Of a DNA stretch of 64,000 nt, positions 2,747 to 22,586 are shown in pieces. Every line of letters begins with the position of its first letter. Positions within the stretch are counted from its first letter, which is position 1. Below the pieces are notes generated by a model. It saw only the letters and a program-made list of their open reading frames with translations, had not been told where the DNA came from and searched no databases. The DNA is from a virus (Duplodnaviria > Heunggongvirae > Uroviricota > Caudoviricetes). The position numbers and the translations under genes are program-made. The DNA lies in IMG/VR virus record IMGVR_UViG_3300019757_000006, one strand, 5' to 3'.

Positions 2747-3520
2747 ATGGAAAGAGAAATGTTAGATTTTATCTTAGAAAGATACTCTGAAAAATACGAG
2801 GCTGAAGATTTCGATTTAAATATGAAAAAATATCAAGAATTAGAAAGTTTTAAAATAAACGAAAATGTTTATAAACAAGACCCAAATTTTTCTAATAAAG
2901 TACATTACATAATGAGATTACATGCTCAATATTATATGACGAAAGTATTCGAAAGTATGAAAGTGGATTTAGAAGACCCAAATACAGCCGAAGTTAGAGA
3001 AGAAGGTAATATTGGGACTGCGGGAAGAATAGTTAAAATGTGGTGTGGAGCAAATACTAAAGATGATAATGAATTATTATGTGGTAGATGGGCTAAGCCT
3101 CCTAGATTAGCAAGTTTTCCAAATACTACAAAGGGAAAAAATAATATACCTATTACGAAAAAGGTAGATTTAATTGCGGTATGTTCTCATCATGCTGCTC
3201 CATTTAGTAGTACTTTTAGACCAGATGGTAAAGCAATAGTTTCATATATTCCAGATAAGATCGTTCTTGGAATTAGTAAACTCCAGAGAATTGTAAATCA
3301 TATTTCTAAACGAGGTTGGTTACAAGAAGATTTAACTAAAGCTATTTACAATGCAGTTTCAGAAGCAGCTGGTTGTGAAGATGTATATGTTGGGTTATTA
3401 AATATTGAACATTCATGTGAAAGTATTAGAGGGGCCAATTCTAAAGACGGATCTTTTTCATCAGAATATTATGGTGGAAAATTCACAAAAGATAAAATTA
3501 GAAATGGTTTAAAATTATGA
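2747..3520 (+). CDS. folE: GTP cyclohydrolase I (FolE / T-fold) family protein
   Basis: VCSHHAAPF...VSYIPDKIVLGISKLQRIV aligns to the FolE catalytic region (CEHH...VAYIP..KVLGLSKIARIV). It lies immediately upstream of thymidylate synthase and DHFR. Confidence 0.75.
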   Translation: MEREMLDFILERYSEKYEAEDFDLNMKKYQELESFKINENVYKQDPNFSNKVHYIMRLHAQYYMTKVFESMKVDLEDPNTAEVREEGNIGTAGRIVKMWCGANTKDDNELLCGRWAKPPRLASFPNTTKGKNNIPITKKVDLIAVCSHHAAPFSSTFRPDGKAIVSYIPDKIVLGISKLQRIVNHISKRGWLQEDLTKAIYNAVSEAAGCEDVYVGLLNIEHSCESIRGANSKDGSFSSEYYGGKFTKDKIRNGLKL

Positions 3521-3930
3521 AATGGTTTGGTCCAAGAGAGAAATCTCTTGGACTCCTGCCACCTCTAAAAGATAAATGTACCTGGTGTTATTCAACATCT
3601 AATATATATTTACAGCCAATATTTACACCAAGGGATATTAGTATACCTTATTTGGATTTACAAGTAAAGAAAAGTAATTTTAAATTTTGTAATAAATGTG
3701 GTACTATATTTGATTATAATTACCATGCTTGGGAACCTGTTTTAGAATGGAAGGTGGCTGGAATGCAAAAAGAAATAAGAAAAATTTTTTTCTTAACTTT
3801 AAAAAAATGTGGAAATAAACTATATATTCCAAAAAAAGTAAATAATAGATGTATAGATGGTATTTATAATATGGAGGAAGAAATTAAAAATCGACCCACC
3901 ACTCCTGATATAAGATTAATACCTGACTGA
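3517..3930 (+). CDS. hypothetical Cys-rich protein (two CxxC pairs, zinc-ribbon-like)
   Basis: CTWCYS....CNKCGT pairs. Start overlaps the folE stop (ATGA). Confidence 0.45.
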   Translation: MKWFGPREKSLGLLPPLKDKCTWCYSTSNIYLQPIFTPRDISIPYLDLQVKKSNFKFCNKCGTIFDYNYHAWEPVLEWKVAGMQKEIRKIFFLTLKKCGNKLYIPKKVNNRCIDGIYNMEEEIKNRPTTPDIRLIPD

Positions 3931-3992
3931 AATGAACCTAAAAAAGAATTGGATTATTATAAAGATAGACCAGAGGGTATGTGTGAAGAACA

Positions 3993-4250
3993 GTGGTTAG
4001 AAATATTTCTAGAACAATAATAAAATTAAAAGGAGAAATTATGACTGGTATTTTTATGAGAGTAAAAAGAAATGATGTAATGGTTAATTTAGAATTAGAA
4101 CATCTGACTGATAAGGAAAGAGAACATCTATTCAAAGATAGACCAAAAATGGAAATAATAAAATTTATGAATGGATTATGTAATTCAATTCAAGAAAAAG
4201 AGGACGCCGATTATAATGAACACTTTTTAGATTCGATGCATCAAGATTAA
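3993..4250 (+). CDS. hypothetical protein
   Basis: 85-aa ORF. The internal Met at MTGIFM is preceded by aaaaggagaaatt, so the true start is probably near 4041. Confidence 0.35.
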   Translation: MVRNISRTIIKLKGEIMTGIFMRVKRNDVMVNLELEHLTDKEREHLFKDRPKMEIIKFMNGLCNSIQEKEDADYNEHFLDSMHQD

Positions 4251-4259
4251 AGGAAAAAA

Positions 4260-5264
4260 ATGAATAGATATTTAGATTTATTACAAGATGTTTTATACGA
4301 TCATAATGAAAGAGATGATAGAACTGGTACAGGTACTTTAAGTGTATTTGGAACTCAAACTAGATATAATTTAAAAAAAGGATTTCCTTTAGTAACAACT
4401 AAAAAAATGTTTACAAAAGGAATTATAGCGGAACTACTTTGGTTTATTGAAGGTAGTACGGACGAAAGAAGATTGGCTGAAATTCAATATGGATTACATA
4501 GAGAGGATCTTATTGGAAAAAATACTATTTGGACGGCAAATGCAGACGCTCAAGGAAAAGATTTAGGTTATGATAATACAGATGTAATTAAAGAATTAGG
4601 TCCCGTGTACGGCAAGCAGTGGCGTTCTTGGACTGGAGATTCTGGAGGAGATATTGATCAAATTAAAAAAGTTATTGATCAAATTCAAAACGATCCCTTA
4701 TCTAGAAGATTAATTGTTTCCGCTTGGAATGTGGCCAAAATAGAAAAAATGGTATTACCTCCATGCCATACCATGTTTCAATTTTATGTTCAACCAACTA
4801 CCCCAGCAATTAGAAAAAATAGAAGTTATCTAAAAGGGACTGATTGTTATTCTCAATATTGTTCTATGTATATACAAGGGAAAAATCCTTCTGACGAGGA
4901 TATTGATCAATTCGATAAAAAATGGGGAATTCCAAAAGGAACTCTGAGTTGTCAATTATATCAAAGAAGCGCAGATTTATTTTTAGGTGTACCTTATAAT
5001 ATTGCCTCTTATTCTTTATTAACTGCTATGATTGCTCAGATATGTGATTTAGAACCAGATGAATTTATTCATACTATTGGAGATGCTCATATTTATTCTA
5101 ATCATGTAGAACAATGTAGAGAGCAATTAACTAGAACTCCTAAAGAGTTATGTAAATTAGAGTTAAATCCTGATATAAAAAATATCGACGATTTTACAAT
5201 GGATGATATAAAAATAGTTGATTATTCGAGTTATGATACTATCAAAGCTCCAATGGCTGTTTAG
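4260..5264 (+). CDS. thyA: thymidylate synthase (ThyA type, with phage/eukaryote-like insertion)
   Basis: Hallmark TS motifs are present: [22 protein letters not shown] and [21 protein letters not shown] (catalytic Cys in PPCH). There is a ~45-aa insertion after FQFYVQ. Confidence 0.95.
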
Positions 5265-5272
5265 GATTTAAT

Positions 5273-5773
5273 ATGAAAATTTCAATGATAGTAGCTTATG
5301 GAAACAACTGGGAAATTGGATTTGATAATAAAATGCTTTGGTATATTCCAGAAGATTTTAAAAACTTTAAGAAAATAACTAGTGGTCATTGTATTTTAAT
5401 GGGCAGAAAAACTTTTGAAAGTATTGGTAAACCATTACCAAATAGAACATCTATTATACTATCTAGAAAGCCATTTAATCAGGAAGGAACCCATTCCTTC
5501 ACTGATGTAGAAGAAGTAATAAAATTTGCGGAAGAGACCGGAGAAGAAGAATTATTTGTGATTGGTGGAGCTCAGATATATAAATTAATGATGCCTTATA
5601 TTAGTAAAATGTACATCTCTCATGTTGATTATTCAGCCGACGAAAACAATAAAGTAGATACTTATTTAGATCCAATTAATCTAAACGATTGGAATATGGC
5701 TGAAACTTGGTCTTTTTTATCAGTTGGTGAAACGCCAGCTTGGGATTTTAAAGTATATACAAGAAAGGAATAA
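5273..5773 (+). CDS. folA: dihydrofolate reductase
   Basis: MISMIVAY..N..IG..N.LPW, the LMGRKTFESIG..LPNR motif and FVIGGAQIY are typical DHFR. Adjacent to thyA, like T4 td/frd. Confidence 0.9.
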   Translation: MKISMIVAYGNNWEIGFDNKMLWYIPEDFKNFKKITSGHCILMGRKTFESIGKPLPNRTSIILSRKPFNQEGTHSFTDVEEVIKFAEETGEEELFVIGGAQIYKLMMPYISKMYISHVDYSADENNKVDTYLDPINLNDWNMAETWSFLSVGETPAWDFKVYTRKE

Positions 5774-5774
5774 T

Positions 5775-6122
5775 ATGGGTTTAGATATGGATGTTCATGT
5801 TAATATTGGAACTCAAGAGGAACCGGAATTTAAAGAAATATTATATTGGAGAAAGCAATATTCTTTACAAGACTGGTTTGGAAAATTAGCAATTAGAAAA
5901 AATTTAGTTCGAGATTTAAATGGATTTAATTGTATAGAAGTTCCACTAACAGTTGAAGATATTCAATTACTTAGGAATGATTTAAAAAATAGAAATTGTC
6001 CAGATTTTGATTACGAAGAAAATTATAATCCAGGATGGATAAAGCGCAGATTAGCAGAATGCGATGAAATGCTTAAATATTTATATTTAGGAAAAGAAAC
6101 TAAATACGATTCTAGTTGGTAG
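5775..6122 (+). CDS. hypothetical protein, member A of tandem paralogue pair
   Basis: Starts MGLDMD right after the DHFR stop (aaggaaTAAtATG). It shares LYWRKQ..L.DWF..LA......F.DFNC..VPLT.EDI..L..DL.NR with the next gene. Confidence 0.55.
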   Translation: MGLDMDVHVNIGTQEEPEFKEILYWRKQYSLQDWFGKLAIRKNLVRDLNGFNCIEVPLTVEDIQLLRNDLKNRNCPDFDYEENYNPGWIKRRLAECDEMLKYLYLGKETKYDSSW

Positions 6123-6146
6123 AGTTAAAAAATAAAAGGAGAAATA

Positions 6147-6518
6147 ATGGGTTTAGATATGTACATAGAAATTATTCAAGATAGTGAAGAAGAGGAAGAG
6201 TTAGATCCAGTACTATACTGGAGAAAGCAACCAGCTTTACATGAATGGTTTCATCAATTAGCCTTAGATAAAAAAATAGAATTTGATGATTTTAATTGTG
6301 TTCCCGTTCCATTAACTAAAGAGGATATTTTTAAATTGCAACAAGATTTAAATAATCGGACATTAGATTTTGGAGCAAAAGGTTTTTTCTTTGGAAGTAA
6401 CGATAGTATGTCAGAAGAAGAGATTAAAGATTGGTGTCATGATAGATTACAAGATTGTAATAAATTATTAAAATCAATAGAAGCTGGAAATCAAATTCAA
6501 TATAATTCTTGGTGGTAA
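6147..6518 (+). CDS. hypothetical protein, member B of tandem paralogue pair
   Basis: RBS aaaggagaaataATG. N-terminal MGLDMY and core are clearly homologous to 5775..6122. Confidence 0.55.
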   Translation: MGLDMYIEIIQDSEEEEELDPVLYWRKQPALHEWFHQLALDKKIEFDDFNCVPVPLTKEDIFKLQQDLNNRTLDFGAKGFFFGSNDSMSEEEIKDWCHDRLQDCNKLLKSIEAGNQIQYNSWW

Positions 6519-6521
6519 TAA

Positions 6522-7862
6522 ATGGAAGATAAACCATTAAATCTGGAGAATAAATTAATTAAGATGTATAGCTGGCATCTAAAGGTTCTGGGTGCTTATG
6601 TTCAGAATCCGGATCCAGGTCTATATGGAGTAGAAGATAATATTATTATTAATAGTTCTGATGCAGCCGCTTTATATCCAACGGTTACTGTATTTAGTAA
6701 TATCAGTTCTGAAACTTTATTTGCTAGAGTTTATGATCCAGCCGCGGTAAGTAATCTTGTTAATTTATTGAAGAAAGTATTTGGTATGAAAGCCAAAGGA
6801 GTACCGATAGATACAATCGTATCTCAAGTAATTCCCTCTTTTACTAATGCAGTTGAAACATTATTAAAAGATTATGGTAAACGTAATCAAATTAAAAATA
6901 AAAAAGATGCTTCTGAATTTACTCTAAAATTTTATCCATATGCGTTAGAAAAAATTATTAGATATAATGGGGAACTTGAAGATATTTTCTGTCCAAAAGA
7001 TGATAGAACTTATTATTTATTAAGAAGTTATTTTTTCCCATTAATAGAAACTATTTCCTGGTTGAGTCCACAGAATAAAGGATATAATCAATTAATAGTA
7101 GATTATATTTTTGAACCAGCTTTATTCGATGAGAAGTACGATAATAAAGAACTTTATATATTCGATAATTATCATAATACTAGATTGAATTTTAAAATAG
7201 TAAATAAAGAAACTATTGAGAGGGATTATTTAGAAAAATATCTATTGAATCCTTATGGTTCTTTATTCTATAAACACGATGATAAATTGGCTTTTGAAGT
7301 TGATTTAATTATTCAAGGTTTAGCCGATAGAAGAACTATTAAAAATCAAATGCTTGTTATGGATGCTATTAATGCAAAGATCGATAATAGTCCAACAGTA
7401 AAAGAATTATTTTTAGATACTGACGAAACTATACTTCATTTAACTCGAGAACAAGCTAGCGCTATTCTAGAAGAAATTGAAGATGATCCGGCTATTAGAG
7501 AATATCGTATTAAATCTTTAATATTAGTAGATTTTGAAAATGTAATTTTTGATAATTACGAAGAATTAAAAAGTTATTTTATTAAAAGAAAAGAGCAATT
7601 TGATTCATTGCAAAATGGTATTAAAGTATCGCTGAACTCTGGTTATGGTATTCTAGGAATGCCTACATTTGAATTTTCAGATACTATTGCTGCTAATAGT
7701 ATTACTACTGGTGGTAAAATATTTGGAATTAAAATGTTCCAAGCTGTTTCTGCTTGGGTTATGGAAAGACATGAGGCTAGATTAGATGATTGTGATGATG
7801 AGAATTGGAAGGATGATGATTGGATAGATCTAGAGTTAAAAGATTTATGTGATTATGAATAA
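6522..7862 (+). CDS. hypothetical protein
   Basis: 446-aa ORF with high coding density. No recognisable catalytic motifs. Acidic C-terminus. Confidence 0.55.
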   Translation: MEDKPLNLENKLIKMYSWHLKVLGAYVQNPDPGLYGVEDNIIINSSDAAALYPTVTVFSNISSETLFARVYDPAAVSNLVNLLKKVFGMKAKGVPIDTIVSQVIPSFTNAVETLLKDYGKRNQIKNKKDASEFTLKFYPYALEKIIRYNGELEDIFCPKDDRTYYLLRSYFFPLIETISWLSPQNKGYNQLIVDYIFEPALFDEKYDNKELYIFDNYHNTRLNFKIVNKETIERDYLEKYLLNPYGSLFYKHDDKLAFEVDLIIQGLADRRTIKNQMLVMDAINAKIDNSPTVKELFLDTDETILHLTREQASAILEEIEDDPAIREYRIKSLILVDFENVIFDNYEELKSYFIKRKEQFDSLQNGIKVSLNSGYGILGMPTFEFSDTIAANSITTGGKIFGIKMFQAVSAWVMERHEARLDDCDDENWKDDDWIDLELKDLCDYE

Positions 7863-7879
7863 CTGCAAAAGGATATACT

Positions 7880-8074
7880 ATGGATATAAATAACGAGGAT
7901 AGGGATTTACCTATTCCTCAAACAAAGAAAGTATTTGTATATGGTACTTTAAAAAGCGACTGTTGTAATAATACCGTGATGCAAAATTTAGGAGCTGAGT
8001 TATTATATAAAAGTAATAGGCTAACGGAGAATCAATTAGAACATAAAGAATTTATTTCTGAGTGGATAGAATAA
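7880..8074 (+). CDS. small hypothetical protein
   Basis: 64-aa ORF filling an intergenic gap. Confidence 0.3.
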   Translation: MDINNEDRDLPIPQTKKVFVYGTLKSDCCNNTVMQNLGAELLYKSNRLTENQLEHKEFISEWIE

Positions 8075-8084
8075 AAGGTAAATT

Positions 8085-8501
8085 ATGAAAGATGAATTTG
8101 GAGATAGAGTCCAATTATTAGATATCGCCGAAAAAGCTAGAAGTAATTTATTGAAAGAATTCTATAATGAGGTATTATATGAAGGTTATACTTTCGATGA
8201 GTTAGTTGAGGATGAAGATTTAGATAAAGAAACAATACCTTATTTTTTAGATCATGGAGTAAAAGCTTCCATTTCCAATTATTCTATAACAATAACATGT
8301 AATTATAATGAATATATTTTTCGAAGACATCGTGATACAAATGAGTATCTAAAAATGGAACAGAATAATTGTTTTTTAATAAATAGAAGGGATACTATAG
8401 CCGGATTTAGAAAACTTCTGGAGAAAATGGAAGAAGAAGAAAAACACATTGGACTTATGACCCCAAGAATATTAGAATGGATGTATAATGTTGGTTACTA
8501 A
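8085..8501 (+). CDS. hypothetical protein, tandem paralogue pair member 1
   Basis: RBS aaaaggtaaattATG. The C-terminal half (ITITCNYNEY...EEEEKHIGLMTPRILEWMYNVGY) aligns with the next gene. Confidence 0.5.
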   Translation: MKDEFGDRVQLLDIAEKARSNLLKEFYNEVLYEGYTFDELVEDEDLDKETIPYFLDHGVKASISNYSITITCNYNEYIFRRHRDTNEYLKMEQNNCFLINRRDTIAGFRKLLEKMEEEEKHIGLMTPRILEWMYNVGY

Positions 8502-8910
8502 AGATAGAAAAGGAATAACTCTAAATCCGGATCCAACTCCAGTAGAGTTATTTATAAAAGCCGAAGAATTAAGAAAAGAATTGAAAAAAGATTTTTTTTT
8601 TCAGATACTTCGACAGAGTGTTCCATATGGTAAAGAACATCGAGAACAATTACCCCTTTTATATAAACGTGGGGTAGAAGTAAATATTAGAAATAAACAC
8701 GTGACTATATATACTCAAAATAATGAATTTCAATTTATGAGATTAAATGGGGATATTCGGTTAAATGAAGATGCTTTGAAATTTTCCGTTGATGGATGTA
8801 AAAGTAAATTAGACGTTATGGATAGAATGAGGCGAATAGAAGAAGAATTTAGAGAAATAAATTCATTGATTCCTCAAATTATTCAGTGGATGGAAATGCG
8901 TGGTTACTAA
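8488..8910 (+). CDS. hypothetical protein, tandem paralogue pair member 2
   Basis: C-terminus VTIYTQNNEF...EEEFREINSLIPQIIQWMEMRGY is homologous to 8085..8501. Start overlaps the previous stop. Confidence 0.5.
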   Translation: MLVTKDRKGITLNPDPTPVELFIKAEELRKELKKDFFFQILRQSVPYGKEHREQLPLLYKRGVEVNIRNKHVTIYTQNNEFQFMRLNGDIRLNEDALKFSVDGCKSKLDVMDRMRRIEEEFREINSLIPQIIQWMEMRGY

Positions 8911-8954
8911 GATATTAAAGATATAATCTATGTATTAAATATAAAAGGAGAAAG

Positions 8955-9133
8955 ATGTTATTAAAATTTAAAGCTGTAAGAGGCGAAATTTATTTTAATC
9001 CAGAATGTTCCCAAATAGAATTTTTATCAGATACTGATATAATTATTATTAATGGTGGTGTTCCTCGAAGGTATACTGCTAGTAAAGAGGAAATGAACGT
9101 TCTGAAAAAAAATTTAGGTAAGTTACTATGAAA
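8955..9133 (+). CDS. small hypothetical protein (59 aa, not in the supplied ORF track)
   Basis: Strong RBS ataaaaggagaaagATG. The stop TGA overlaps the ATG of the next gene (cTATGAaa). Confidence 0.3.
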
Positions 9134-9571
9134 ACAATATGTTTAATTTCCTGCGTTAAAGGAAAGAATAATGTTTCAAGTAAAGCAGTTGATTTATATA
9201 AAAGTACTTTATTCTCGGCTCATAAAAATTGGGCTTATAATGTAAGAGGTTTTAAAGAAGAAGATTGTAGAATTTTATCGGCCGAGCATGGTTTAATTCC
9301 AATGGATATTGTTATAGGTCCTTATGAGAAAACCTTGAATAATATGAGTACTCCGGATAAAGGTAAGTGGGCAAGAAAAGTTTATCAGCAATTAAAAGAT
9401 GAATTCGATTTAAAAGAAACAAACTTTGTTATATTAGCTGGAAAAAATTATTATGAAAATTTAGTTCCAGTTTTAAAGAATTTTGAATTACCAGAGAGTC
9501 TTAAAGGTTTACCGATTGGTAAACGAGTTCAGCAATTACATAAAGAAATAACAGAAAGGAAAAATAAATGA
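9128..9571 (+). CDS. hypothetical protein
   Basis: 147-aa ORF translationally coupled on both sides. Confidence 0.5.
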   Translation: MKTICLISCVKGKNNVSSKAVDLYKSTLFSAHKNWAYNVRGFKEEDCRILSAEHGLIPMDIVIGPYEKTLNNMSTPDKGKWARKVYQQLKDEFDLKETNFVILAGKNYYENLVPVLKNFELPESLKGLPIGKRVQQLHKEITERKNK

Positions 9572-10330: not shown

Positions 10331-10340
10331 AAGGATAAAA

Positions 10341-12322: not shown

Positions 12323-12387
12323 CTCGGAACCATAAGTAGTTGTTATAGAAAAAAAGGATATACTAATTGAAAGGAAGTAAGTAGTAA

Positions 12388-14304
12388 ATGAAAGAAAATA
12401 AAGTTGTCTTATTAAGTGAGAAAACTCATGTTTTAAAAAGAAGTGCTAGATATCTTGGAAGTATTGTTCCAGTAAAGATTTCTAGACCATTAATTCAAGA
12501 TGGTAAAATAGTGTTTGGGGAAGTAGATTATGTTCCAGCATTATTAAAAATTGCTAGAGAATTTATAGATAATAAAATTGATGAAAATATTAGGACTGGT
12601 GGTAAGTTCGCCAATGTAATTGATATTCAATTAGATCATGAAAAATTAGTAGCTTCTGATAATGGAAGAGGTATTCCAGTTATTAAAAGTGTGGATGAGT
12701 CCGGTCAAGAACTTGAACAGACAATGCCGGAATTAGCTTGGGCTAATCTTAGAGCTGGTTCTAATTTTGATGATGAAGCAGACAATACTAGTATTGGGCA
12801 AAATGGAGAAGGTGCCTCCTTAGGTGTTATGTTTAGTTCTAAATTTATTGGAGAAACTGATGATTTAAATAAACATTTTAAAATGGTATGTACTGATAAT
12901 ATTAGTACGAAAGATGTAAAGATTACTCCTTCTAAAAAGAAGAATGGTACTAAGATCCAATTTTATCCAGATATGGATAAGTTAAATCTTGGAGATAAAA
13001 TAGATCCAATATATCAAGATTTATTATATTTTGATTTATTATTCTTAAGTATAACATATCCAGATATTACATTTAAATTTAATAAAAGAGTTATTAAAAT
13101 TAAAAGTTATAATCAATTAATTAAAGAATATTTTGACTCTAAGATAATTTGTACTGAGCAAGATAATGTTATTATTGGTGTTACTAGTTCGGAAATTGGA
13201 TACAATTTTATTCAATTCGTTAATGGTATTAATGCTTATAATGGGGGCAATACTTTAGACTATATTGAAAAAAGAGTAGTGCTTCCTTTAACCGAAAGAT
13301 TCCAAAAGAGTCTTAAAACTATTAAAGCGGCTGATATAAAAAATAAAATTAGTATTCATGTAATTTTTAAAGATATGGTTAATCCTAGATTTGAAGATCA
13401 ATTAAAAACTAGTTGTATTAATACTGCAAGTCAATTTCCAGAAATAGCAGAACAGATTTTAGAAATATCTAAAAGTAAATTTATTGAAAAGATATATAAA
13501 GAAAAAAGTATATCAGACCCAATTAGAGATTTACATAAAGCTAATGAATTAGTTGCTTTAGGTAAAGATGCAAAAAATGCTCAGAAGAAAGTAAAGGTTT
13601 CGGCTAAGTATTGGAAAGCATCTAAAGTTAAAAAAAGATTATTTCTAGCGGAAGGGGATTCGGCTATTAATCCTATTATTGCTGAGATTGGAAGAGAAGA
13701 AAATGGGTTTTTCCCACTAAAGGGTAAATTGATTAATTGTCTAAAAAAATCTTTAAAACTAGTTTTAAAGAATGATGAAGTAATTCAGTTAGCAGATATT
13801 CTTGGAATTAATCTTAGTCATAATGAAAATGGTAAAGATAAAGATTTAGACTATTTAGAAATCTGGTTAGCTGGAGATATGGATGTTGATGGTTCTCATG
13901 TTGTATTATTAGTACTTTCTTTTATAGAAAAATTTGCCCCAGCTTATTTAGATAAAGTTAGGGTCTTTAGATTTATGTCTCCAGTTATGATTGCTCTTAA
14001 AAATGATATCCCAATAAATATGTTTTTTACTATGAAAGAATTTGCTGACTTTAGAGATAATAAAAACACTAGAGGAATTTCTTGGTATTATGCTAAAGGT
14101 CTTGGATCTTTATCCGAAGAAATGTGGGAGTTTTTATTTAAAGAATTTCCTTTAAAAGATTTAGGATTACCACTATCATTTGATAATGTAGATGATCCAG
14201 AAAAAGAAAGACAAGAAATGTATTCTTGGTTAACTGATGATATTGATTTTAGAAAAGTAAAAATTAAAGAAAATATAGCTAATTTTGATTTAGGAGATAG
14301 TTAA
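12388..14304 (+). CDS. type II DNA topoisomerase large subunit (T4 gp39-like: GyrB-type ATPase + TOPRIM)
   Basis: The N-terminus has a GHKL ATPase-like region. The TOPRIM motif LFLAEGDSA and the DxD motif GDMDVDGSH are both present. The next gene encodes the Tyr-bearing cleavage subunit. Confidence 0.9.
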   Translation: MKENKVVLLSEKTHVLKRSARYLGSIVPVKISRPLIQDGKIVFGEVDYVPALLKIAREFIDNKIDENIRTGGKFANVIDIQLDHEKLVASDNGRGIPVIKSVDESGQELEQTMPELAWANLRAGSNFDDEADNTSIGQNGEGASLGVMFSSKFIGETDDLNKHFKMVCTDNISTKDVKITPSKKKNGTKIQFYPDMDKLNLGDKIDPIYQDLLYFDLLFLSITYPDITFKFNKRVIKIKSYNQLIKEYFDSKIICTEQDNVIIGVTSSEIGYNFIQFVNGINAYNGGNTLDYIEKRVVLPLTERFQKSLKTIKAADIKNKISIHVIFKDMVNPRFEDQLKTSCINTASQFPEIAEQILEISKSKFIEKIYKEKSISDPIRDLHKANELVALGKDAKNAQKKVKVSAKYWKASKVKKRLFLAEGDSAINPIIAEIGREENGFFPLKGKLINCLKKSLKLVLKNDEVIQLADILGINLSHNENGKDKDLDYLEIWLAGDMDVDGSHVVLLVLSFIEKFAPAYLDKVRVFRFMSPVMIALKNDIPINMFFTMKEFADFRDNKNTRGISWYYAKGLGSLSEEMWEFLFKEFPLKDLGLPLSFDNVDDPEKERQEMYSWLTDDIDFRKVKIKENIANFDLGDS

Positions 14305-15680
14305 TGAAAAAGTTTTTAGATTCAGAAGTGCTTACTTATGGAACTTATAAAGTAGTACAACAGTTACCAAATGCTCTTAGTGGGATGTCTCAGACTCAAA
14401 CTAAGATCATGCATGAGCTTCAAAAGAAACCAGATAAGAAGATAAAGACCGCTGAGGTTTTTACTCTTATTTATAATAATACGAAGTACAGACATGGTGA
14501 TGTATCAGCAAATACTACTACTAGTAATCTGGCTGCTCCATATAGTAATAATATTAATTTATTAAAGCCTAGTGGAACATTTGGATTTAGAAGTGCCAAG
14601 AAAGCATCTTCTGCTAGATATACTAATGTTATTTTTAGTAAGATGGGACAATCTATATTTAATAAAAAAGATATACCATTACTAGAAGAACAGATATTAG
14701 AAGAAACTGTAGTTGAACCACATTATTTATTACCTATTATTCCAGTTGGTTTAATTAATGGTATGGATGGTATTGGTATGGGATATTCTTGTAAAGTACA
14801 TCCTAGAAATCCTTTAGAGATAATTGATTTAATCATTAATATATTAAGTGGTAAAACTAAAGTAATTCCTAGTGTTCTTAACTTACATTACCCGTTCTTT
14901 GATGGAGTAATTGAAAATGGAGAAAATCCTAGACAATTTATTATTAAAGGTAAAGTTTCTAAACCTAAAAAGAATGTTGTAAAAATTACTCAAGTACCCG
15001 TTTCTTTAGATAGAGAAAAAATTATTGATAATTTAAATAAATTAATTGATAAAGATTTAATTAGATCGTTCGAAGAAGATTGTGTAAAAAACACATTTGA
15101 CTTTACTGTTAGAGTAACTCCAGAAGTATGGAATATGGATGAAGAAACTCTATTAGAATTATTCTCATTAAACTCTACTGTATCAGATAGTATTACTCTT
15201 ATTCATAGAGTTAATAATAAATATGAATTATTATTCTTTGATTCGGTTTCTGAGTATCTTGGTTTTTGGATTAAAGAAAGATTAGGTTTATATAAAGAAA
15301 GATTAGCTATTGAAATAATTGAATATGAATTTAGATTAATGAAAAACGAGGAACAACGTAGATTTATTGAATTAGAAAATAATGGGACTATAGTTGTTTC
15401 TAAAAAATCTAAAGTTGATATTTTAAAGCAAATTAAAGCTAATAATTTAAAAAATATTGCAGATGGTTCTTCGGAAACTGGATGGAATTATTTATTAAAT
15501 ATGCCTATTTATAATTTAAGTGCTGAAAAATTAAAAGAATTAGAAATCGAACATGCTAGATTAACTCAAGAGTTAATTGATTATAGAAAATTAAAGCCAA
15601 CGAGTGTTTGGTTAGAAGAATTAAAAAATCTTCATAAATTAGTATTAAAAGAATACGAATCGAAATTGGTTGTGGTATAA
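14304..15680 (+). CDS. type II DNA topoisomerase medium subunit (T4 gp52-like, GyrA/ParC-type cleavage domain)
   Basis: SSARYTNV active-site tyrosine context (AxRYTE in GyrA). Start overlaps the gp39-like stop (TAATG). Confidence 0.85.
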   Translation: MKKFLDSEVLTYGTYKVVQQLPNALSGMSQTQTKIMHELQKKPDKKIKTAEVFTLIYNNTKYRHGDVSANTTTSNLAAPYSNNINLLKPSGTFGFRSAKKASSARYTNVIFSKMGQSIFNKKDIPLLEEQILEETVVEPHYLLPIIPVGLINGMDGIGMGYSCKVHPRNPLEIIDLIINILSGKTKVIPSVLNLHYPFFDGVIENGENPRQFIIKGKVSKPKKNVVKITQVPVSLDREKIIDNLNKLIDKDLIRSFEEDCVKNTFDFTVRVTPEVWNMDEETLLELFSLNSTVSDSITLIHRVNNKYELLFFDSVSEYLGFWIKERLGLYKERLAIEIIEYEFRLMKNEEQRRFIELENNGTIVVSKKSKVDILKQIKANNLKNIADGSSETGWNYLLNMPIYNLSAEKLKELEIEHARLTQELIDYRKLKPTSVWLEELKNLHKLVLKEYESKLVVV

Positions 15681-15706
15681 TCCACAACCAATTTTCCTGT
15701 CGTTAT
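15669..15706 (+). terminator. stem-loop + TTTCCTGTCGTTA element on the topoisomerase stop codon
   Basis: ggttgtgg-tataat-ccacaacc hairpin; the topoisomerase stop TAA (15678-15680) sits in its loop. It is followed by aattttcctgtcgttattttt. Confidence 0.45.
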
Positions 15707-15740
15707 TTTTGGGTAATTTATATTATAACCACTCGGTTTA

Positions 15741-15797
15741 AAAACGTGATAGCTGGTCAACTATACTAAGCTATAGCTATCTTAAGCTAAGCTATTG
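15741..15797 (+). repeat. AGCTA-rich dispersed intergenic repeat, copy A
   Basis: aaaacgtgatagctggtcaactatactaagctatagctatcttaagctaagctattg. The reverse complement of copy C (41101..41163) matches it. Confidence 0.5.
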
Positions 15798-15807
15798 TAT
15801 AATAATA

Positions 15808-15870
15808 CTTTAGAATAAGTACATCAGAGTATAGATATATTATAATCAGATAAGATGATATAATTGAAAA
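15808..15870 (+). promoter_or_regulatory. conserved ~60-bp promoter-like block, copy 1
   Basis: ctttagaataagtacatcagagtatagatatattataatcagataagatgatataattgaaaa. Its 26-nt core agtatagatatattataatcagataa is identical at 34775..34800 and contains TATAAT-like hexamers. It lies ~160 bp upstream of gene 16027. Confidence 0.45.
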
Positions 15871-16026
15871 GTTATATTTTTTTATAGTCTATTTTTTGGC
15901 CCTGACGAGGGCATTATAAATACAATATTAAATATAAAAGGAGATCTTTTTTTATAGTTGTTAATTATTTTTTATAAATAATTAAACCGAGATTCGCGAT
16001 GAAAAAATTAAAAGGAGAGTCACACG

Positions 16027-16413
16027 ATGAATCATACCCCCGTATGTGCGGATAAAGAAAAAGTAAAGAAGCTTTTTTATTCCGTTTTAAAAGAGAAAAA
16101 ATGCTCTCATGAAGATTATACTCTTATTAAAAAATTAATACTAAATGAGGAACATAATGTTCTTTATTACAGAAGTGTAAATAATAATCCTTTTGGAAAA
16201 GGGATGTTGAAAGATTTAAGTATAAAAGAGGGAGAGGTATTTTATTTAAGAAAAAATGTTATTTTTGCTCAACATAAAACATTAGGATTAATTAAAATTT
16301 TAGGTATCAATACTAAAAGAAAAGATATCAAATTATATATAAAGGGTCAATTAGGTAACTTAATTATGGAAAGCACTACTCCAGTTTTAGTGCATAGTGC
16401 TAAGGTTGATTAA
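16027..16413 (+). CDS. hypothetical protein
   Basis: RBS aaaaggagagtcacacgATG. First gene after a 346-bp regulatory intergenic region. Confidence 0.5.
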   Translation: MNHTPVCADKEKVKKLFYSVLKEKKCSHEDYTLIKKLILNEEHNVLYYRSVNNNPFGKGMLKDLSIKEGEVFYLRKNVIFAQHKTLGLIKILGINTKRKDIKLYIKGQLGNLIMESTTPVLVHSAKVD

Positions 16414-17009
16414 TGAATTACTCTAAAGTTAAATTTAATAAATGTATTAGACTTCTTAAACCTATTGTAGATGCATTTTCAAGTACTATTGTTGGAATAG
16501 AAAGAGAGTATGTTATTGAAAGTATTTTTATTACTAAGAATAATCGAATAGGTGTGGTTATTTTAGGTAGTATGGGATTTAGATGTGGTTATATAAGTAT
16601 TGGAGAAAATGATTTATTAGAAGATTATGAATATTATGAAATTGATGTTCATGGTGGTTTAACCTATCAAGGAAAAGATAATATTGATGAAGTTATTAAA
16701 AACAAGTTAACTCCTGAAGAATTTAATTACATTAAAAAAAATATAACTTATATTGGATTTGATTGTGGCCATTATACTGATGGAAATTCTTATGCTGATT
16801 TAATAGAGTACGGAGTTGAAGTTGAACATCAATTTTCTATAGGTGGTCAAGTAAAAACTTTAGACTATGTTAAAAATGAAATTCAGAAAATGGATTCTCA
16901 ATTAAAAAAGACTAATATTAAAGTTAGAAAAAAGTTAGATACTTTAATTCAAACCAGATTAGTATTTGAAAGAGGTCGTTTTAAATTTAAAGGTAAAAAG
17001 AATGGGTAG
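16413..17009 (+). CDS. hypothetical protein
   Basis: 198-aa ORF whose start overlaps the previous stop (TAATG). Confidence 0.5.
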   Translation: MNYSKVKFNKCIRLLKPIVDAFSSTIVGIEREYVIESIFITKNNRIGVVILGSMGFRCGYISIGENDLLEDYEYYEIDVHGGLTYQGKDNIDEVIKNKLTPEEFNYIKKNITYIGFDCGHYTDGNSYADLIEYGVEVEHQFSIGGQVKTLDYVKNEIQKMDSQLKKTNIKVRKKLDTLIQTRLVFERGRFKFKGKKNG

Positions 17010-19089
17010 AGGAAACAGAAGTAGAAACCGAAGAAGAAGAAAAAAAAATAATAATTCTTCTGAAGAAAATACAGAAAATAGAGGTAGTTCTTTTTCTAAA
17101 CAGAGAAAAACTAAAGAGCAAAAAAAACAAGAGAAAATACAAAGAAAGAAGGAAGCGAAAATGGGTAAAAGAAAAAGTAATTTTTTAAGTAATGTGTCAG
17201 ATGCCGTATCAAATGCAATGAGTGTAAATAATTATTATGGTGGTGGTTATGGTTATAATGCGTTTCAGGTAACTAGACCAACTGATGGTGAAGAAAAAAC
17301 AACTTTAAATTTAGCAATCTTTTCACAAAAATTTTTAAATGATATTGCTGCACAATGTGTACCAGTAGCTGGTGGAGCTGAGTTCCAAACTCATTATAGA
17401 TGTTTACAAGTAGTAATTGGTAATGGTCAAGGTAGAGTTGTATTTACAATTCCTACTGTATTCTTTAACTTTCCTCAAACTGTTTCGACAGGTTCTGTTG
17501 ATTTTGATTTAAGAGAAGTAGATACTATTTCAGCTGGATTAAAAGAAAAATCAAATGAACTTGCTATGCAAATTGCAAATGTTTTTCCAAAAGCTTATTT
17601 TGAAGGTATGGGATTTAATGTATCATTTAGAGAAGGTGAAGTTGGAAGTATTCATAGACATCCAGGGGATTTCTCATTCTCGAGTATTGACTTAGATAAA
17701 GATCCTACAAATCCAGGGGTTATTTATAGACAAGGTAATGCAAAAGATGTTATTCAAACGGATTCTGTTTTATATATTCAAGGTGGAAATCATGTTAAGT
17801 TAGTAACTACTCAAACTAGAGTTGTTAATGTAGAAGCAGCTGAGGATGGTGGTGTTGCTGGAACATATGATAAAGCTAAAACTATTGCAATGATTTATAA
17901 AGATTCTGATACTACTCCAGAAATAGATACAACTGCTACGGAAATTGCTTTTGATCAATTTTTTATACCAGATGGAGAAACAGAACAACAAGGTGTTGCA
18001 GAAGTACTTACTCATTATTTAAATAGATTTGATGGTATTTCTCAAGGAGAAGCTGAAGGGTTTATTGAACATGCTGCTAAAGTTATGCAAATTTTAATTT
18101 CAAATAACTATACTGCAATTAACAAGATTGATCCAAATCTTATTAAACCACATTACCATTCTCCAAAAGTTACTTATAGTCGTAATAAAGCAAGTAATAG
18201 TAATACTAAGAGTCATTTCGCAAAAGATATTGGTACTGACTTAGATGTTAAAGATATGATGTTAAATGAAGTATTAGATTTCTTAAATATAGAACCTTCT
18301 AAATCTAAAATTACTGAAATTACTGATGAGGAAGTTAGAACATTATTCTGGAATTGTGCTGGAAATAAAAGTAATTCTGTAACAATATCTTGTTCTGATG
18401 GTACTATTAAATCAGATGTTATTACAAAAACAAGTGTATTAATTAAAGTAACTTTTACTCAAAAATTAGCTAAAGGTACTAGTACTAGTACTAGATATAT
18501 TCAAAAAGGGAATGGTAATGAGTACATTATCGAAGATAAACCTGAAATTACCCCAGAAGTAATTATAGAAGATGATGATGAAAGCAATATTATTCTTGAT
18601 TATAATGATGCTAGTATTGATCTTGATCATATCGAAACTGACGGAATAGATACCGTTCAAAATGATATTCCAGATATTATTGACGCAGATGCTACTAAAG
18701 CTATCCTTGATTCAGAACAAGAAGTAGAATCTATTGATACTATTACAGAAGATGATAAAGAGGAAACTAAAGAAGTTGGTGGTACTCAGGTTCAAGAAGT
18801 TAAAGAAAAAAAACCAGATTTAGATGAGGTTACTATAGATGATATTAAAAAGTTATTTAAGGAATCTTATGGAAAACAATTTACTGAATTGACCGTAGTA
18901 AATCAATTCCAAGTTGATGGTCTTAAGAAAATGTTATTGGTTTTAAAACCATTAGGTACAGAGTATCTAAGAATTAAAACAGAGAATGTAGAAATTTTTG
19001 CTGATGAATTGAATGATAAAGAGTGTTGTATTATTACATTAGAAACAGCTACAAACTCGTTTCCTAAGCCAATCGATTTATCGATTTAA
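17003..19089 (+). CDS. hypothetical protein with poly-basic N-terminus and acidic C-terminal region
   Basis: The ATG at 17003 (MGRGNRSRNRRRRKKNN) has RBS aaaggtaaaaagaATG. I preferred it over the track start at 16966, which would overlap the previous gene. The C-terminus has D/E-rich tracts. Confidence 0.55.
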
Positions 19090-19091
19090 TT

Positions 19092-20144
19092 ATGGATGTG
19101 GCCTTTATAAAGGATCCACATTTAATGTTTGGCTTTCGTAATTTAATTAGAAAGCCAGGTTGGGAAAATGATGTGATTCTAAAATTAGAAACTATTAAAA
19201 ATTTGATGATTGAAAGAGGATGTACTATTTTACTTTTCTCTGGAGATATGTTAGATAGAAGTAAATCTAAAGAATGGTCTTTTAAATTATATTTAAAAGT
19301 TTTAGAAGTACTTACAAAAATCTTTGTGGAAAACGGAATTAATATCTATAGTATTCAGGGTAATCATGATATGTTAGATGGTAATGAATCTGTCGAAGGA
19401 AGTGTATTTGGTAAGTTAGTTGAAGATGGTATTATTCATCATATAACTACTAATCCATTAGTACTTAATCTTCAAGATGAAGCTACTGGAAAACGGGTAG
19501 ATGTTTCTATTCAGGGTTTAGATTATACTGAGGTAAAAGAAAATATTCAATCTGGTATGGAGCGAATAAATTCTAGTACTTTAAATACGGAGATGATAAA
19601 TTGTATGATGACTCATACTAATATTACTCCAAATGAAACTCAAGTATCTGATTTTACGTATAAACATTTATCTGAAACTTATCCAAATATCGATATTCAC
19701 TTTTGTGGGCATTATCATTTAGGTTTTGAACCAGATAAAGTTAATAATACTACATTTATTAATCCTTGGAACTTAACTAGAGTTATAAGAGATTATAATT
19801 CTAGAATGGAGTTACATACTCCAGAAGTAACTTTTATAAATTTTATAAAATATTCAAAAGATGCTGAACCGGAGGAGTTTACTGAGGTAATTCAATTACC
19901 TCATAAATCTTTTTCAGAAGCATTCAGAGAGGAAGTTATAAATTTATTAGAGGAATCAGATAATGGTTTTAAATTCTTTAAAGAGGGAGTAGTTGATTTA
20001 GAAGAATTGCTTCAGAATCAGGAAATGACTGATGAAGAAATGATTTCGGTTTTAATTACTAAAACTCTTGAGGGAGTTCCAGATGAAAGAAAGAGCCTAA
20101 TTAAAAATAAGGTTCTTCAATATCTTGGAGAAGAAAATGTTTAA
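19092..20144 (+). CDS. Mre11/SbcD-like metallophosphoesterase nuclease (T4 gp47-like)
   Basis: Calcineurin-like phosphoesterase motifs appear in order: DPHL (DxH), LFSGDMLDR (GDxxD), IQGNHDM (GNHD), CGHYHLG (GHxH). Confidence 0.7.
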   Translation: MDVAFIKDPHLMFGFRNLIRKPGWENDVILKLETIKNLMIERGCTILLFSGDMLDRSKSKEWSFKLYLKVLEVLTKIFVENGINIYSIQGNHDMLDGNESVEGSVFGKLVEDGIIHHITTNPLVLNLQDEATGKRVDVSIQGLDYTEVKENIQSGMERINSSTLNTEMINCMMTHTNITPNETQVSDFTYKHLSETYPNIDIHFCGHYHLGFEPDKVNNTTFINPWNLTRVIRDYNSRMELHTPEVTFINFIKYSKDAEPEEFTEVIQLPHKSFSEAFREEVINLLEESDNGFKFFKEGVVDLEELLQNQEMTDEEMISVLITKTLEGVPDERKSLIKNKVLQYLGEENV

Positions 20145-20706
20145 TTATTATCCAAGTAAAATAGATACTTATTGGAAATCCGACCCATTAGATAAAAGAA
20201 GATTTTTAGCCAGTTATATGCATTATTTATCTTTAATTAAATTATGTCATAAAGCTCAAGAGAATGGAAAAACTATTGGTTGGGAAATTAAAGAAATATT
20301 AGATTTATCCGCGAAGGATGTTTCTAATTATTATTTTAAACTTAAGTACTTATCGTATTATAAAGTATCAATCTCTCCAAAGATGGTAAAGGATAAAGAA
20401 TCGAAAGAATATTTATTTAATATTAATCTAGAGGGTGATGAGTTAATAGATATAAAGCATAAAGATAACGTGGCTGCATTATATGATAATATATGTGCAG
20501 TTATTGGTGATTATGATTTATATAAAGAGGAAGCTGTTTTAGATATGGGATTACTAGTTCCAGGTAAAAATATGTTCGTTTTAAATAATAGAGACTTAGT
20601 ACAAGTTGAAGAATTTAAAGATAGTCTAGTTAATTTCTTATTAACAGAACCATATACAAAGTTAGAAAAAGGTTCGAAAGTAATCGGATCACTTGTATTT
20701 AAATAA
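20125..20706 (+). CDS. hypothetical protein
   Basis: 193-aa ORF that overlaps the end of the nuclease gene. Confidence 0.5.
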   Translation: MEKKMFNYYPSKIDTYWKSDPLDKRRFLASYMHYLSLIKLCHKAQENGKTIGWEIKEILDLSAKDVSNYYFKLKYLSYYKVSISPKMVKDKESKEYLFNINLEGDELIDIKHKDNVAALYDNICAVIGDYDLYKEEAVLDMGLLVPGKNMFVLNNRDLVQVEEFKDSLVNFLLTEPYTKLEKGSKVIGSLVFK

Positions 20707-20717
20707 AGGAAAAAAAA

Positions 20718-21779
20718 ATGAAAAAAAATTTTGAAGAGTTTACAAATAGTTTACAAGGTGGTAGTTGTTTAAATAAAAACGATATTCTGCATCCAAATGG
20801 TCTTCCAAATATTGGAAAAATTATGGATAAATTAAAAAGTGGGGTGTACTCAAATGCTGGTGGAATCGATACTAAAATAATTGAAGGTAACTTAAAAAAA
20901 GTAACTGAGATGATTGAAAATAAAGAAGCTCCAACTGCAGTATTAAAGCAATTATTTAATGGTATTCCAGGTATTTCTGATACTATTGCAAGCCTATCAG
21001 ATGAAGATTTATTAAATCCTGAAGCGGCAATTAAAAAAATTAAAGAAAATGTTCAAGCTGGAAAGACTGGATATACTGGTTGTAAAACTTGTAGTACTCC
21101 AGACCCAAAACCAAAGTCGGTAAATGATAAAGAGATGTTAGAACTTACTGCTTTACTTAGAATGATTGATCCAACTCAACAATTTATTACAGAGCTGGAA
21201 GCTATCAGACTTAAGCCAGCTAAGTTTGTAAAAAATGTAAAGAAGCTAATTAAAAAATTAGTGAAAGATAGAGAAGGGTTTGAAGCTACTTTAGAATATT
21301 TAAAAGTAGATGATTTCTCAATGCAAAATTTAGCTGAATTATTAATTCAAGATACAAAACCATCTTTAAAAAAATTATCGGAAAAGTTATTAAATAGTTC
21401 TGATATGCCAGAAGAATTAAAAAAACCATTAAAAGCAGTTTCAAAAATGATTGGTTCTTTAGATACTCTTGGTTCTATCGAAAATGCAGATGAAGAAACA
21501 GTTAAAAAAGCATTTAAACCACTTGGTAAAGAGATGAAAAAATTAACGGCAGAGGCTAGAAATAAACCGGAAAATGCTGGTTTATTAAAAGAGTTAAAAA
21601 AACTTAAAAAAAATTATCTATCTAATAAAATTGCAAAAGAAGCTGCAATGAAAAAAATTCTTGATCTTCAAATTCAGGACTTGAATCCTGAAAGAGCTAT
21701 GATTTGCCAATCGTTTCTTCTAGAGGAAATTGATGGCTTTATGAAAAAAGAAGAGGAAGATAATAAAAAAGGTAAATAA
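20718..21779 (+). CDS. hypothetical Lys-rich alpha-helical protein
   Basis: 353-aa ORF with RBS aaaggaaaaaaaaATG. Very K/E-rich. Confidence 0.5.
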   Translation: MKKNFEEFTNSLQGGSCLNKNDILHPNGLPNIGKIMDKLKSGVYSNAGGIDTKIIEGNLKKVTEMIENKEAPTAVLKQLFNGIPGISDTIASLSDEDLLNPEAAIKKIKENVQAGKTGYTGCKTCSTPDPKPKSVNDKEMLELTALLRMIDPTQQFITELEAIRLKPAKFVKNVKKLIKKLVKDREGFEATLEYLKVDDFSMQNLAELLIQDTKPSLKKLSEKLLNSSDMPEELKKPLKAVSKMIGSLDTLGSIENADEETVKKAFKPLGKEMKKLTAEARNKPENAGLLKELKKLKKNYLSNKIAKEAAMKKILDLQIQDLNPERAMICQSFLLEEIDGFMKKEEEDNKKGK

Positions 21780-22586
21780 ATGAAACCAGGTAAAAACGAT
21801 TTAGTAACTATTAATAGTAGTGGTGGTTTAGATAGTACTGTATTATTATATAAAGTACTTAAAACTACAAAAGCAGATGTTATCTTAATTAATTATAAGT
21901 ACGGTCAAAATCATGGTATTGAAATTGAAGTACAAAAAAAATTATATAGAGATATTAAAGAAGATTTTGGAGATAGAGTTCTAGGTAATATTACTATAGA
22001 TCTTGGTCCTGTATACAAAGCTTCTAAAGATGTATTTGATGATCTTAAAACTCTTAGAGAGTCTAAAGGTATTAAAGATAGTACTAATCATGAATTTTAT
22101 ACTCCAAGTAGAAACTTATTATTTATGAGTGCAGCTTCTGCACTCGGCGAATTAGTAAGTATTGCTCAAGGATATAAAAATCTTTATTTAGGAATTGGAG
22201 TTCATAAGCATTCGGAAGAAGCTTATGGAAAAGATGGGGAAAATGGTAGTACTCAATATTGGGATATTACTCCAGAATTCATTGGCCAGTTACAAAATGT
22301 TTTAAATTTAAATGATGTTGTAAATATTGAAATTTATGCTCCATATAAAAATAAGTTCAAGAAAAAGATAATCAAAGATATGGTAAAACATAAAGTTGAT
22401 TTTAAAAAAACTTGGACTTGCTATGATCCATTGTATGATGAAGTTCAACATGAGGTTATGGTTAAAACGTGTAAGAAATGTGAAGCTTGTGTTGAAAGAG
22501 AATTACAAGGAAAATTAGCTGGTGTTGAAGGCATTAATGATTACTATGTAACTCTTAGAAAAAACCAAAAGCATGCTATAGCATAA
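21780..22586 (+). CDS. queC: 7-cyano-7-deazaguanine (preQ0) synthase QueC-like PP-loop ATPase
   Basis: PP-loop SSGGLDST is present. NYKYGQNHG matches QueC (DYGQRH). PSRN matches PGRN. TWTCYDP and the C-terminal zinc motif CKKCEAC match QueC (TWSCY...CGRCDSC). Confidence 0.85.
   Translation: MKPGKNDLVTINSSGGLDSTVLLYKVLKTTKADVILINYKYGQNHGIEIEVQKKLYRDIKEDFGDRVLGNITIDLGPVYKASKDVFDDLKTLRESKGIKDSTNHEFYTPSRNLLFMSAASALGELVSIAQGYKNLYLGIGVHKHSEEAYGKDGENGSTQYWDITPEFIGQLQNVLNLNDVVNIEIYAPYKNKFKKKIIKDMVKHKVDFKKTWTCYDPLYDEVQHEVMVKTCKKCEACVERELQGKLAGVEGINDYYVTLRKNQKHAIA

Follow-up and report, generated by a model that had tools for sequence, protein, structure and literature searches.

Phages that carry 7-deazaguanine bases in their DNA have been described in several groups, and the transglycosylase involved differs among them. 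The DNA of CP220 is 100% substituted with 2′-deoxy-7-amido-7-deazaguanosine (dADG) via DpdA3 (PMC10516641), phages of the KVP40/nt-1 type (Schizotequatrovirus) encode DpdA2 and carry 2′-deoxy-7-cyano-7-deazaguanosine (dPreQ0), dADG and 2′-deoxyarchaeosine (dG+) at low levels, very low in the case of nt-1 (PMC6884629), and the 9g/CAjan phages (Queuovirinae) encode DpdA1. Proteins related to QueC also occur outside this pathway, as Cap9 and QatC ligate deazaguanine to proteins (PMC13329287; 10.1101/2025.04.06.647259). Here we describe a 64,000-nucleotide stretch of the Caudoviricetes record IMGVR_UViG_3300019757_000006 (hereafter the window), which encodes a FolE-like and a QueC-like protein. 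An earlier note on this DNA had regarded the two genes as candidates for 7-deazaguanine modification of the phage DNA or, alternatively, for folate supply. Our analysis favors deazaguanine over folate: we put at roughly 65% the probability that the two genes, dispersed in the window, belong to a phage system that modifies DNA with 7-deazaguanine, a reading that rests partly on the relatives of this phage.

The FolE-like open reading frame (ORF), whose coordinates are listed with those of the other features in the table below, is real, as the earlier note had supposed. Its product matched the Pfam family GTP_cyclohydroI at 95 bits against a gathering threshold of 27 (E 4.8e-27, residues 87-250) and the PHROG 'GTP cyclohydrolase' at 128 bits, and among PDB sequences it matched human and E. 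coli GTP cyclohydrolase I with an E value of about 1e-12. Residues C146, H148, H149, S177, Q193, E194, H222, C224 and R228, which correspond to E. coli C110, H112, H113, S135, Q151, E152, H179, C181 and R185, were invariant in an alignment with human GCH1 and in all 120 homologues compared, the zinc ligands being C146, H149 and C224. The roles of the corresponding zinc-binding and catalytic residues are established for GTP cyclohydrolase I. Judged by these residues, the FolE-like enzyme looks catalytically competent. The protein has an N-terminal extension of ~85 amino acids (aa) and belongs to a large, mostly metagenomic clade, with homologues on many large contigs at 50-73% identity, and it is better conserved than the QueC-like neighborhood. 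The closest FolE proteins from isolates, 47-48% identical across 97% of the protein, were those of the Campylobacter phages CPt10 and IBB_35. The long form is also the chromosomal FolE of Lebetimonas natsushimae (L025; 55% identity), where it lies in a housekeeping context, and it was found (~255 aa, 47-51% identity) on large chromosomal contigs of Marinilabiliales (L117-L134), a bacterial group unrelated to the first, which weakens an assignment of the phage to a host among the Campylobacterota. The Cys-rich ORF that follows the FolE-like gene had no family match in Pfam, NCBIfam or PHROGs, and in the closest relative an ORF that follows FolE resembles it only weakly, at 34% across 65 aa (E 0.006).

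The QueC-like protein likewise matched its Pfam family (QueC, 96.9 bits, E 1.5e-27) and the PHROG 'QueC-like' (131.5 bits), and it falls in a large clade of metagenomic proteins 240-270 aa long. The PP-loop SGGLDS (residues 14-19) and the zinc cysteines C214, C231, C234 and C237, both of which the earlier note had recognized, were invariant in 120 of 120 clade members, with a zinc-site spacing of C-x16-CxxCxxC compared to C-x8 in canonical QueC. The signature of canonical QueC was defined in a 2026 study, in which Y35, R99, Y131 and Y189 proved essential in the E. coli enzyme (PMC13329287). Their counterparts here, Y41, R111, Y160 and Y215, were also invariant (120/120). The clade departs from the canonical enzyme in having YWDI instead of YPDC (120/120); the QueC-like protein has TPSRN where canonical QueC has VPxRN, and its YGQNHGIE fits the pattern YxQxHxxE, the H of which is replaced by N in 95 of the 120 members. 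The closest homologues among isolates, at 29-31% identity by tblastn, were QueC proteins of the KVP40/nt-1 type, in which an H..AYG..YWD motif similarly replaces the canonical CETDFSGYPDCR, albeit with YWDC in KVP40 where this clade has YWDI. Taken by its conserved residues, the QueC-like enzyme looks catalytically competent, and we predict that it converts 7-carboxy-7-deazaguanine (CDG) to 7-amido-7-deazaguanine (ADG) or 7-cyano-7-deazaguanine (preQ0), the end product being left open because YWDI replaces YPDC.

The exact QueC-like and FolE-like proteins of the window are both recorded on one 224,699-bp contig, and the source is an uncultured low-GC jumbo phage (~28% GC in the window) that had no near relative among GenBank phages. 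We compared loci of related contigs (designated, like the other loci here, L followed by a number), reading about 40 kb per relative. The closest relative (L026 and L004, ~228 kb) encodes a QueD-type 6-carboxytetrahydropterin (CPH4) synthase, with the signature CxxxHGH, 5 kb upstream of FolE. Its genes run in the order 404-aa protein, 80 aa, 63 aa, QueD, 169 aa, 157 aa and 334 aa, then, after several further genes, FolE, 105 aa, 89 aa, ThyX, 115 aa and a PolB fragment, and ~18 kb further on a 364-aa protein, QueC-like, a 98-aa ORF and ClpB. The window, together with 1.2 kb to its left (L011), is collinear with this relative gene by gene at 31-78% identity (63-78% for the proteins that the window and the relative share), the sole difference being that thymidylate synthase (ThyA) and dihydrofolate reductase (DHFR) stand in the window where the closest relative has ThyX. 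Given this collinearity, QueD and a homologue of the 404-aa protein, which we regard as DpdA-like, would be expected ~2-5 kb to the left of the window start.

The same genes recur in other relatives. In a 281-285-kb relative (L023/L028), a 211-aa 6-pyruvoyltetrahydropterin synthase family protein with the QueD signature lies 3 kb upstream of FolE, and a search with it recovered a tight family (60-82% identity) with members on the 228,283-bp contig of the closest relative and on contigs of 281,328 and 226,657 bp, the latter two also holding a QueC-like gene. The lists of FolE and QueD matches had 14 contigs, compared by their lengths, in common, and in L115 the two genes are directly adjacent. 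The 281-285-kb phage, like the closest relative, carries the DpdA-like, QueD, FolE and QueC-like genes, and subsets of the four were found on contigs of 136.9, 272.6, 226.7 and 281.3 kb. The QueD proteins of these relatives are closest to QueD of the CP220 group (41% identity).

The 404-aa protein that adjoins QueD in the closest relative belongs to a family of six members (39-76% identity), all of which are located on contigs that also bear QueC-like, FolE-like or QueD genes. Four motifs, LDSGG[FY]Q, YSFGGLVGLK, HMLGQSS and TMDSSE, are kept in the six members and line up, in the same order, with the DSG, HxLG and SxDS positions that are near-invariant in phage DpdA1, the counterparts in 9g DpdA1 being LDSGAF, TLGGLVG, HGFGITS and CDSSSW; the first is also the 'DSGGFQ' motif of tRNA-guanine transglycosylase (TGT), as in E. 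coli Tgt. Scored with a DpdA1 hidden Markov model (HMM), the members came out ahead of every other ORF of the lineage loci, with E values from 1e-3 to 2e-2 and 11.7-14.3 bits; the best of 688 scored composition shuffles reached 5.8 bits. In an hhalign comparison the family obtained an E value of 2.2e-4 over 260 columns, and its own HMM touched a CP220 DpdA3 homologue (E 0.014). This is good circumstantial evidence, not proof, that the 404-aa protein is a DpdA, and we consider that assignment probable; if real, the family would be a subfamily distinct from DpdA1-4. CP220 gp068, which lies upstream of QueD in that phage, was considered as a transglycosylase and rejected because it has no TGT motifs, the DpdA3 of CP220 being gp056.

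Within the window, no QueD, QueE or TGT/DpdA was found by Pfam scans, which covered all ORFs of at least 45 aa except one 2483-aa ORF, nor by six-frame phmmer and HMM searches, which took in that ORF as well; this agrees with what had been stated before. The six-frame searches used profiles of QueD, QueE (81 sequences), DpdA1 (63 sequences), DpdA3 and the new DpdA-like family, and phmmer references from phages 9g, KVP40, CP220 and phiST. The suggestion that the missing genes lie elsewhere in the genome fits the QueD and DpdA-like genes upstream of FolE in the relatives; for QueE it found no such support in the lineage. QueE was sought in the window and the lineage loci with the radical-SAM proteins of 9g, L016 and CP220 by phmmer and with the 81-sequence HMM with filters off, in each case with negative outcome, and a scan of IMG/VR with the QueE alignment returned 80 contigs, all unrelated. 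A radical-SAM gene at the end of L009 was rejected as QueE, since it is YydG/SPASM-like. As about 40 kb was read per relative, QueE may be encoded elsewhere in the genome or be supplied by the host.

Taken together, these genes would fit the following pathway. The FolE-like enzyme would convert GTP to dihydroneopterin triphosphate, from which a long-form QueD, predicted from the collinear relatives to lie a few kb to the left of the window, would make CPH4. QueE, from elsewhere in the 225-kb genome or from the host, would then form CDG, which the QueC-like ATPase, going by its sequence and structural model, would turn into the amide, ADG, and probably further into the nitrile, preQ0. Finally, a divergent DpdA-like transglycosylase, as seen in the relatives, would exchange guanine in the phage DNA for the deazaguanine base after replication, and this exchange would shield the phage DNA from restriction.

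Compared with the described systems, the locus most resembles different groups in different parts. With the CP220/CPt10 group (Firehammervirus) it shares the long-form FolE and, in the relatives, the long-form QueD, as well as the low GC content, the large genome and the scattering of the pathway genes outside a single operon. However, the genome backbones are unrelated at the DNA level, no Campylobacter phage matched the QueC-like protein of the window (tblastn, E <= 1e-5), and in that group the pathway ends at CDG (PMC10516641); CP220 furthermore has its own QueE (gp081) and DpdA3, whereas this lineage has a QueC-like gene, a different DpdA-like gene and no QueE that we could find. In KVP40 the folE, QueF-like, queC and Gat genes are clustered, unlike here. 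The 9g/CAjan phages share the pathway logic of FolE, QueD, QueE, QueC and DpdA, and the four motifs of their DpdA1 occur in the same order and with similar spacing in the DpdA-like protein of the relatives; on the other hand, the genes of 9g form a compact operon that includes QueE and Gat-QueC, whereas those of this lineage are scattered across more than 25 kb, and the DpdA-like protein of ~400 aa was missed by Pfam and BLAST.

Several observations weigh against the deazaguanine reading. Both proteins fall short of equivalog cut-offs, the QueC-like protein scoring 79.7 bits against the 150.3 of TIGR00364 and the FolE-like protein 75-86 bits against the 162-202 of the NCBIfam models. The QueC-like gene is not clustered with other pathway genes: in 13 loci, no queD or queE was found within 10 kb of it, with the exception of the distant jumbo phage L016, where a Gat-QueC and a QueE-like gene lie two genes away. 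Searches for QueE were negative in the window and in every lineage locus read. QueD and the DpdA-like gene were seen in relatives and not in this genome, and the best 120 QueD matches included none from the 224,699-bp contig. The DpdA-like protein had no Pfam match at E <= 1, no match to PDB sequences (phmmer and profile) and no tblastn match in GenBank phages; the hhalign comparison had a probability of only 45%, and shallow hhalign runs were weak. Lastly, Cap9, a protein ligase, matched the structural model of the QueC-like protein about as well as QueC did. The proposal of the earlier note stands as the favored one, with enzymes that look competent, while its QueD and DpdA-like components come from relatives, the DpdA assignment consists of motifs and weak profile scores, and the QueC-like fold also fits a Cap9-type ligase.

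With respect to folate, the alternative is that FolE feeds folate or pterin to an adjacent ThyA/DHFR module for thymidylate (dTMP) synthesis and that the QueC-like gene is unrelated. The FolE-like gene indeed lies 740 bp 5′ of thyA-folA on the same strand, and the two neighbors named in the earlier note were confirmed, although two small ORFs, the Cys-rich one and another at 3993-4250, occupy the gap and FolE is not directly upstream. However, ThyA and DHFR stand exactly at the site that ThyX holds in the closest relative (L026:15691-16500), which indicates that the thymidylate-synthase cassette was swapped, and in L023 and L116 no thy gene is present at that site while FolE is kept in place. 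We propose that ThyA and DHFR form an independent, exchangeable dTMP cassette, and since FolE stays while the neighboring thymidylate synthase is exchanged or absent, a folate role is disfavored. The recurrence of FolE with QueD on 14 contigs, and their adjacency in L115, also speak against it, as does the window, where Pfam scans revealed none of folB, folK, folP and folC or any other further folate-synthesis gene. ThyA and DHFR moreover recycle folate and do not require new pterin synthesis. Folate supply is thus unlikely to be the main role of FolE, and a pure dTMP module with an unrelated QueC-like gene appears quite improbable. A second alternative is that the genes raise the host queuosine flux, providing free preQ0 or queuosine for tRNA and so tuning translation while the DNA stays unmodified. 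This would account for a window in which no transglycosylase was found, for a pathway that is incomplete without host QueE and for a QueC-like gene that stands alone among replication genes. Nevertheless, six related contigs with QueC-like, FolE or QueD genes also have a DpdA-like gene next to QueD, and neither a bacterial-type Tgt nor QueA, QueF or QueG was found in any relative locus read. Surveys have likewise found no queuosine-specific genes in phages and a DpdA in every phage with these pathways (PMC6884629, PMC10516641), and we regard the queuosine explanation as unlikely.

The statement that preQ0 synthesis is the only role of the QueC family is outdated, given that Cap9 and QatC deazaguanylate proteins (PMC13329287; 10.1101/2025.04.06.647259), and the QueC-like protein could accordingly be a ligase of this type that joins carboxy-deazaguanine to a protein N-terminus, for instance in counter-defense, instead of a preQ0 synthase. 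Its AlphaFold2 model (mean predicted local distance difference test score 87) has the QueC fold, and the best PDB matches were QueC (2pg3 and 3bl5) and Cap9 (9nto), with Cap9 (9nto_B) the second-best structural match at a template-modeling score of 0.77 on the target; fold alone therefore leaves the chemistry undecided. The conserved residues do not decide it either, since Cap9 retains the canonical QueC catalytic core (PMC13329287), and a protein of unknown function (the charged protein in the table) is translationally coupled to it on the upstream side. The type IV cyclic oligonucleotide-based antiphage signaling system with Cap9/Cap10 and the QatC systems additionally resemble this lineage in having a TGT-like protein in the same genomes. 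They differ in their surroundings: no CD-NTase, QatA, QatB or QatD was found nearby with Pfam and PADLOC, none of the QueC-like neighbors has an N-terminal glycine that could serve as a substrate, and the genes here belong to a phage with FolE and QueD. The QueC-like protein is moreover full length at 268 aa, compared to ~185 aa for the Cap9 form or ~400 aa for the extended form, it scored 79.7 bits with TIGR00364 but 28.3 bits with the QatC model, and among isolates it is most similar to QueC proteins that phages encode within deazaguanine clusters. We consider the ligase explanation very improbable.

Within the deazaguanine reading, a more specific proposal is that this lineage uses a fifth DpdA subfamily of ~400 aa together with the 'YWDI' variant of QueC and has no phage QueE. 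The phage would then have to obtain CDG through host QueE or by an unknown route, and the base placed in its DNA might be ADG, preQ0 or a derivative not yet described. We offer this only tentatively and hold it to be rather doubtful.

Table. Positions of the features discussed, in the window or, where a locus is given, in relatives.
Feature	Position	Strand	Basis or remark
FolE-like GTP cyclohydrolase I, long form, 257 aa	2747..3520	+	Pfam PF01227
Cys-rich ORF, 137 aa, module membership uncertain	3517..3930	+	start overlaps FolE stop
thyA	4260-5264	+	Pfam, NCBIfam
folA (DHFR)	5273-5773	+	Pfam, NCBIfam
PolB fragment	6522-7862	+	Pfam
DUF6884 protein, YaaA-like	9128-9571	+	116.7 bits
Topoisomerase II subunits	12388-15680	+	Pfam
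Mre11-like phosphoesterase	19092-20144	+	Pfam
Charged protein, 353 aa, 33% K+E+D+R, module membership uncertain	20718..21779	+	stop abuts QueC-like start
QueC-like PP-loop ATPase, 268 aa, 'YWDI' variant clade	21780..22586	+	Pfam PF06508
ORF after QueC-like, 94 aa	22589..22873	+	no family match
ClpB/ClpA-type double-AAA+ chaperone, full-length, 880 aa	22902-25544	+	Pfam
Rad50-like ATPase	28291-30249	+	Pfam
CHAP lysin			Pfam
SPFH protein			Pfam
Probable DpdA-like protein of closest relative, 404 aa	L026:7324-8538		adjoins QueD; four DpdA/TGT motifs
Other DpdA-like family members	L023:4540-5745, L116:7729-8934, L029, L136, L137		near QueD

The neighborhood of the QueC-like gene is kept in contigs of 204-281 kb, in the order topoisomerase II, ~700-aa protein, Mre11-like protein, charged protein of 296-364 aa, QueC-like and ClpB-like, and the start of the QueC-like gene abuts or overlaps the preceding stop. 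A 296-364-aa protein occupies the position of the 353-aa charged protein in every close relative (L002, L003, L004, L007 and L009); its sequence diverges fast, and the window protein had no family match above threshold and no N-terminal glycine. The 94-aa ORF after the QueC-like gene, which the earlier note had left without an assignable function and thought might belong to the module, had no family match in Pfam, NCBIfam, PHROGs or PADLOC. Its only homologue was that of the closest relative (98 aa, 32%), and there was none between the QueC-like and ClpB-like genes in L002, L007 and L009; being conserved in the closest relative alone, it is probably outside the core module. All close relatives have the ClpB-like gene directly 3′ of the QueC-like one, at 56-73% identity. 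Such a chaperone is unusual in a phage, and it also matched the PADLOC models PDC-M37B and DolB. An apparent association of QueC-like and AAA+ genes in L015 and L020 was rejected, as the ATPase there is of the clamp-loader type and its likeness to ClpB a generic AAA match.

Other observations concern the deazaguanine genes of the relatives. In L016, a set of QueE-like, Gat-QueC, QueC-like and phosphoribosyltransferase genes (L016:6980-13699) is inserted between RNA polymerase subunit genes, and in L115 a phosphoribosyltransferase gene accompanies FolE and QueD (L115:9162-12580); a phosphoribosyltransferase near deazaguanine genes might point to a pre-replicative route that acts on nucleotides. 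A conserved gene pair, located a few genes 5′ of the DpdA-like one, encodes an AAA_5 (MoxR-like) ATPase and a ~500-aa protein with sub-threshold Pfam matches of the von Willebrand factor A (VWA) type (L026:2309-5347, L023:242-2980 and L116:3408-6209).

The first ~41 kb of the window has its genes on the + strand and the remainder has them on the - strand. The genes recognized by Pfam form a divergent large-phage replication and structural set, the remaining ORFs being mostly orphans. ThyA has 334 aa compared to 264-318 model positions, and its model matches are split into residues 1-179 and 226-334, which implies an inserted segment. The DUF6884 protein is kept in the relatives L003, L009 and L026 and strongly matched the PADLOC candidate defense model PDC-M57A (145 bits); DNA binding and base flipping have been predicted for this family by the Pfam curators. 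Two pairs of + strand ORFs look like tandem paralogues without family matches, one (5724-6122 and 6147-6518) with common 'MGLDM...YWRKQ...W' ends and the other (8085-8501 and 8488-8910) with a common C-terminal '...WMxxxGY'. The - strand block, which is presumably structural, contains the 2483-aa ORF (48986-56437) and a repeat-rich, coiled-coil-like ORF of 1012 aa (45577-48615).

If the deazaguanine reading is true, 7-deazaguanine modification of DNA would extend to widespread uncultured low-GC phages of 200-290 kb, and these would possess a new subfamily of transglycosylases overlooked by present annotation pipelines, which would lead surveys counting DpdA to underestimate the frequency of these modifications. 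The 'YWDI' clade of QueC would provide a natural variant for tests of the residues that decide between release of the amide and completion of the nitrile. The DNA of such phages may also be refractory to restriction enzymes and give unusual results in sequencing.

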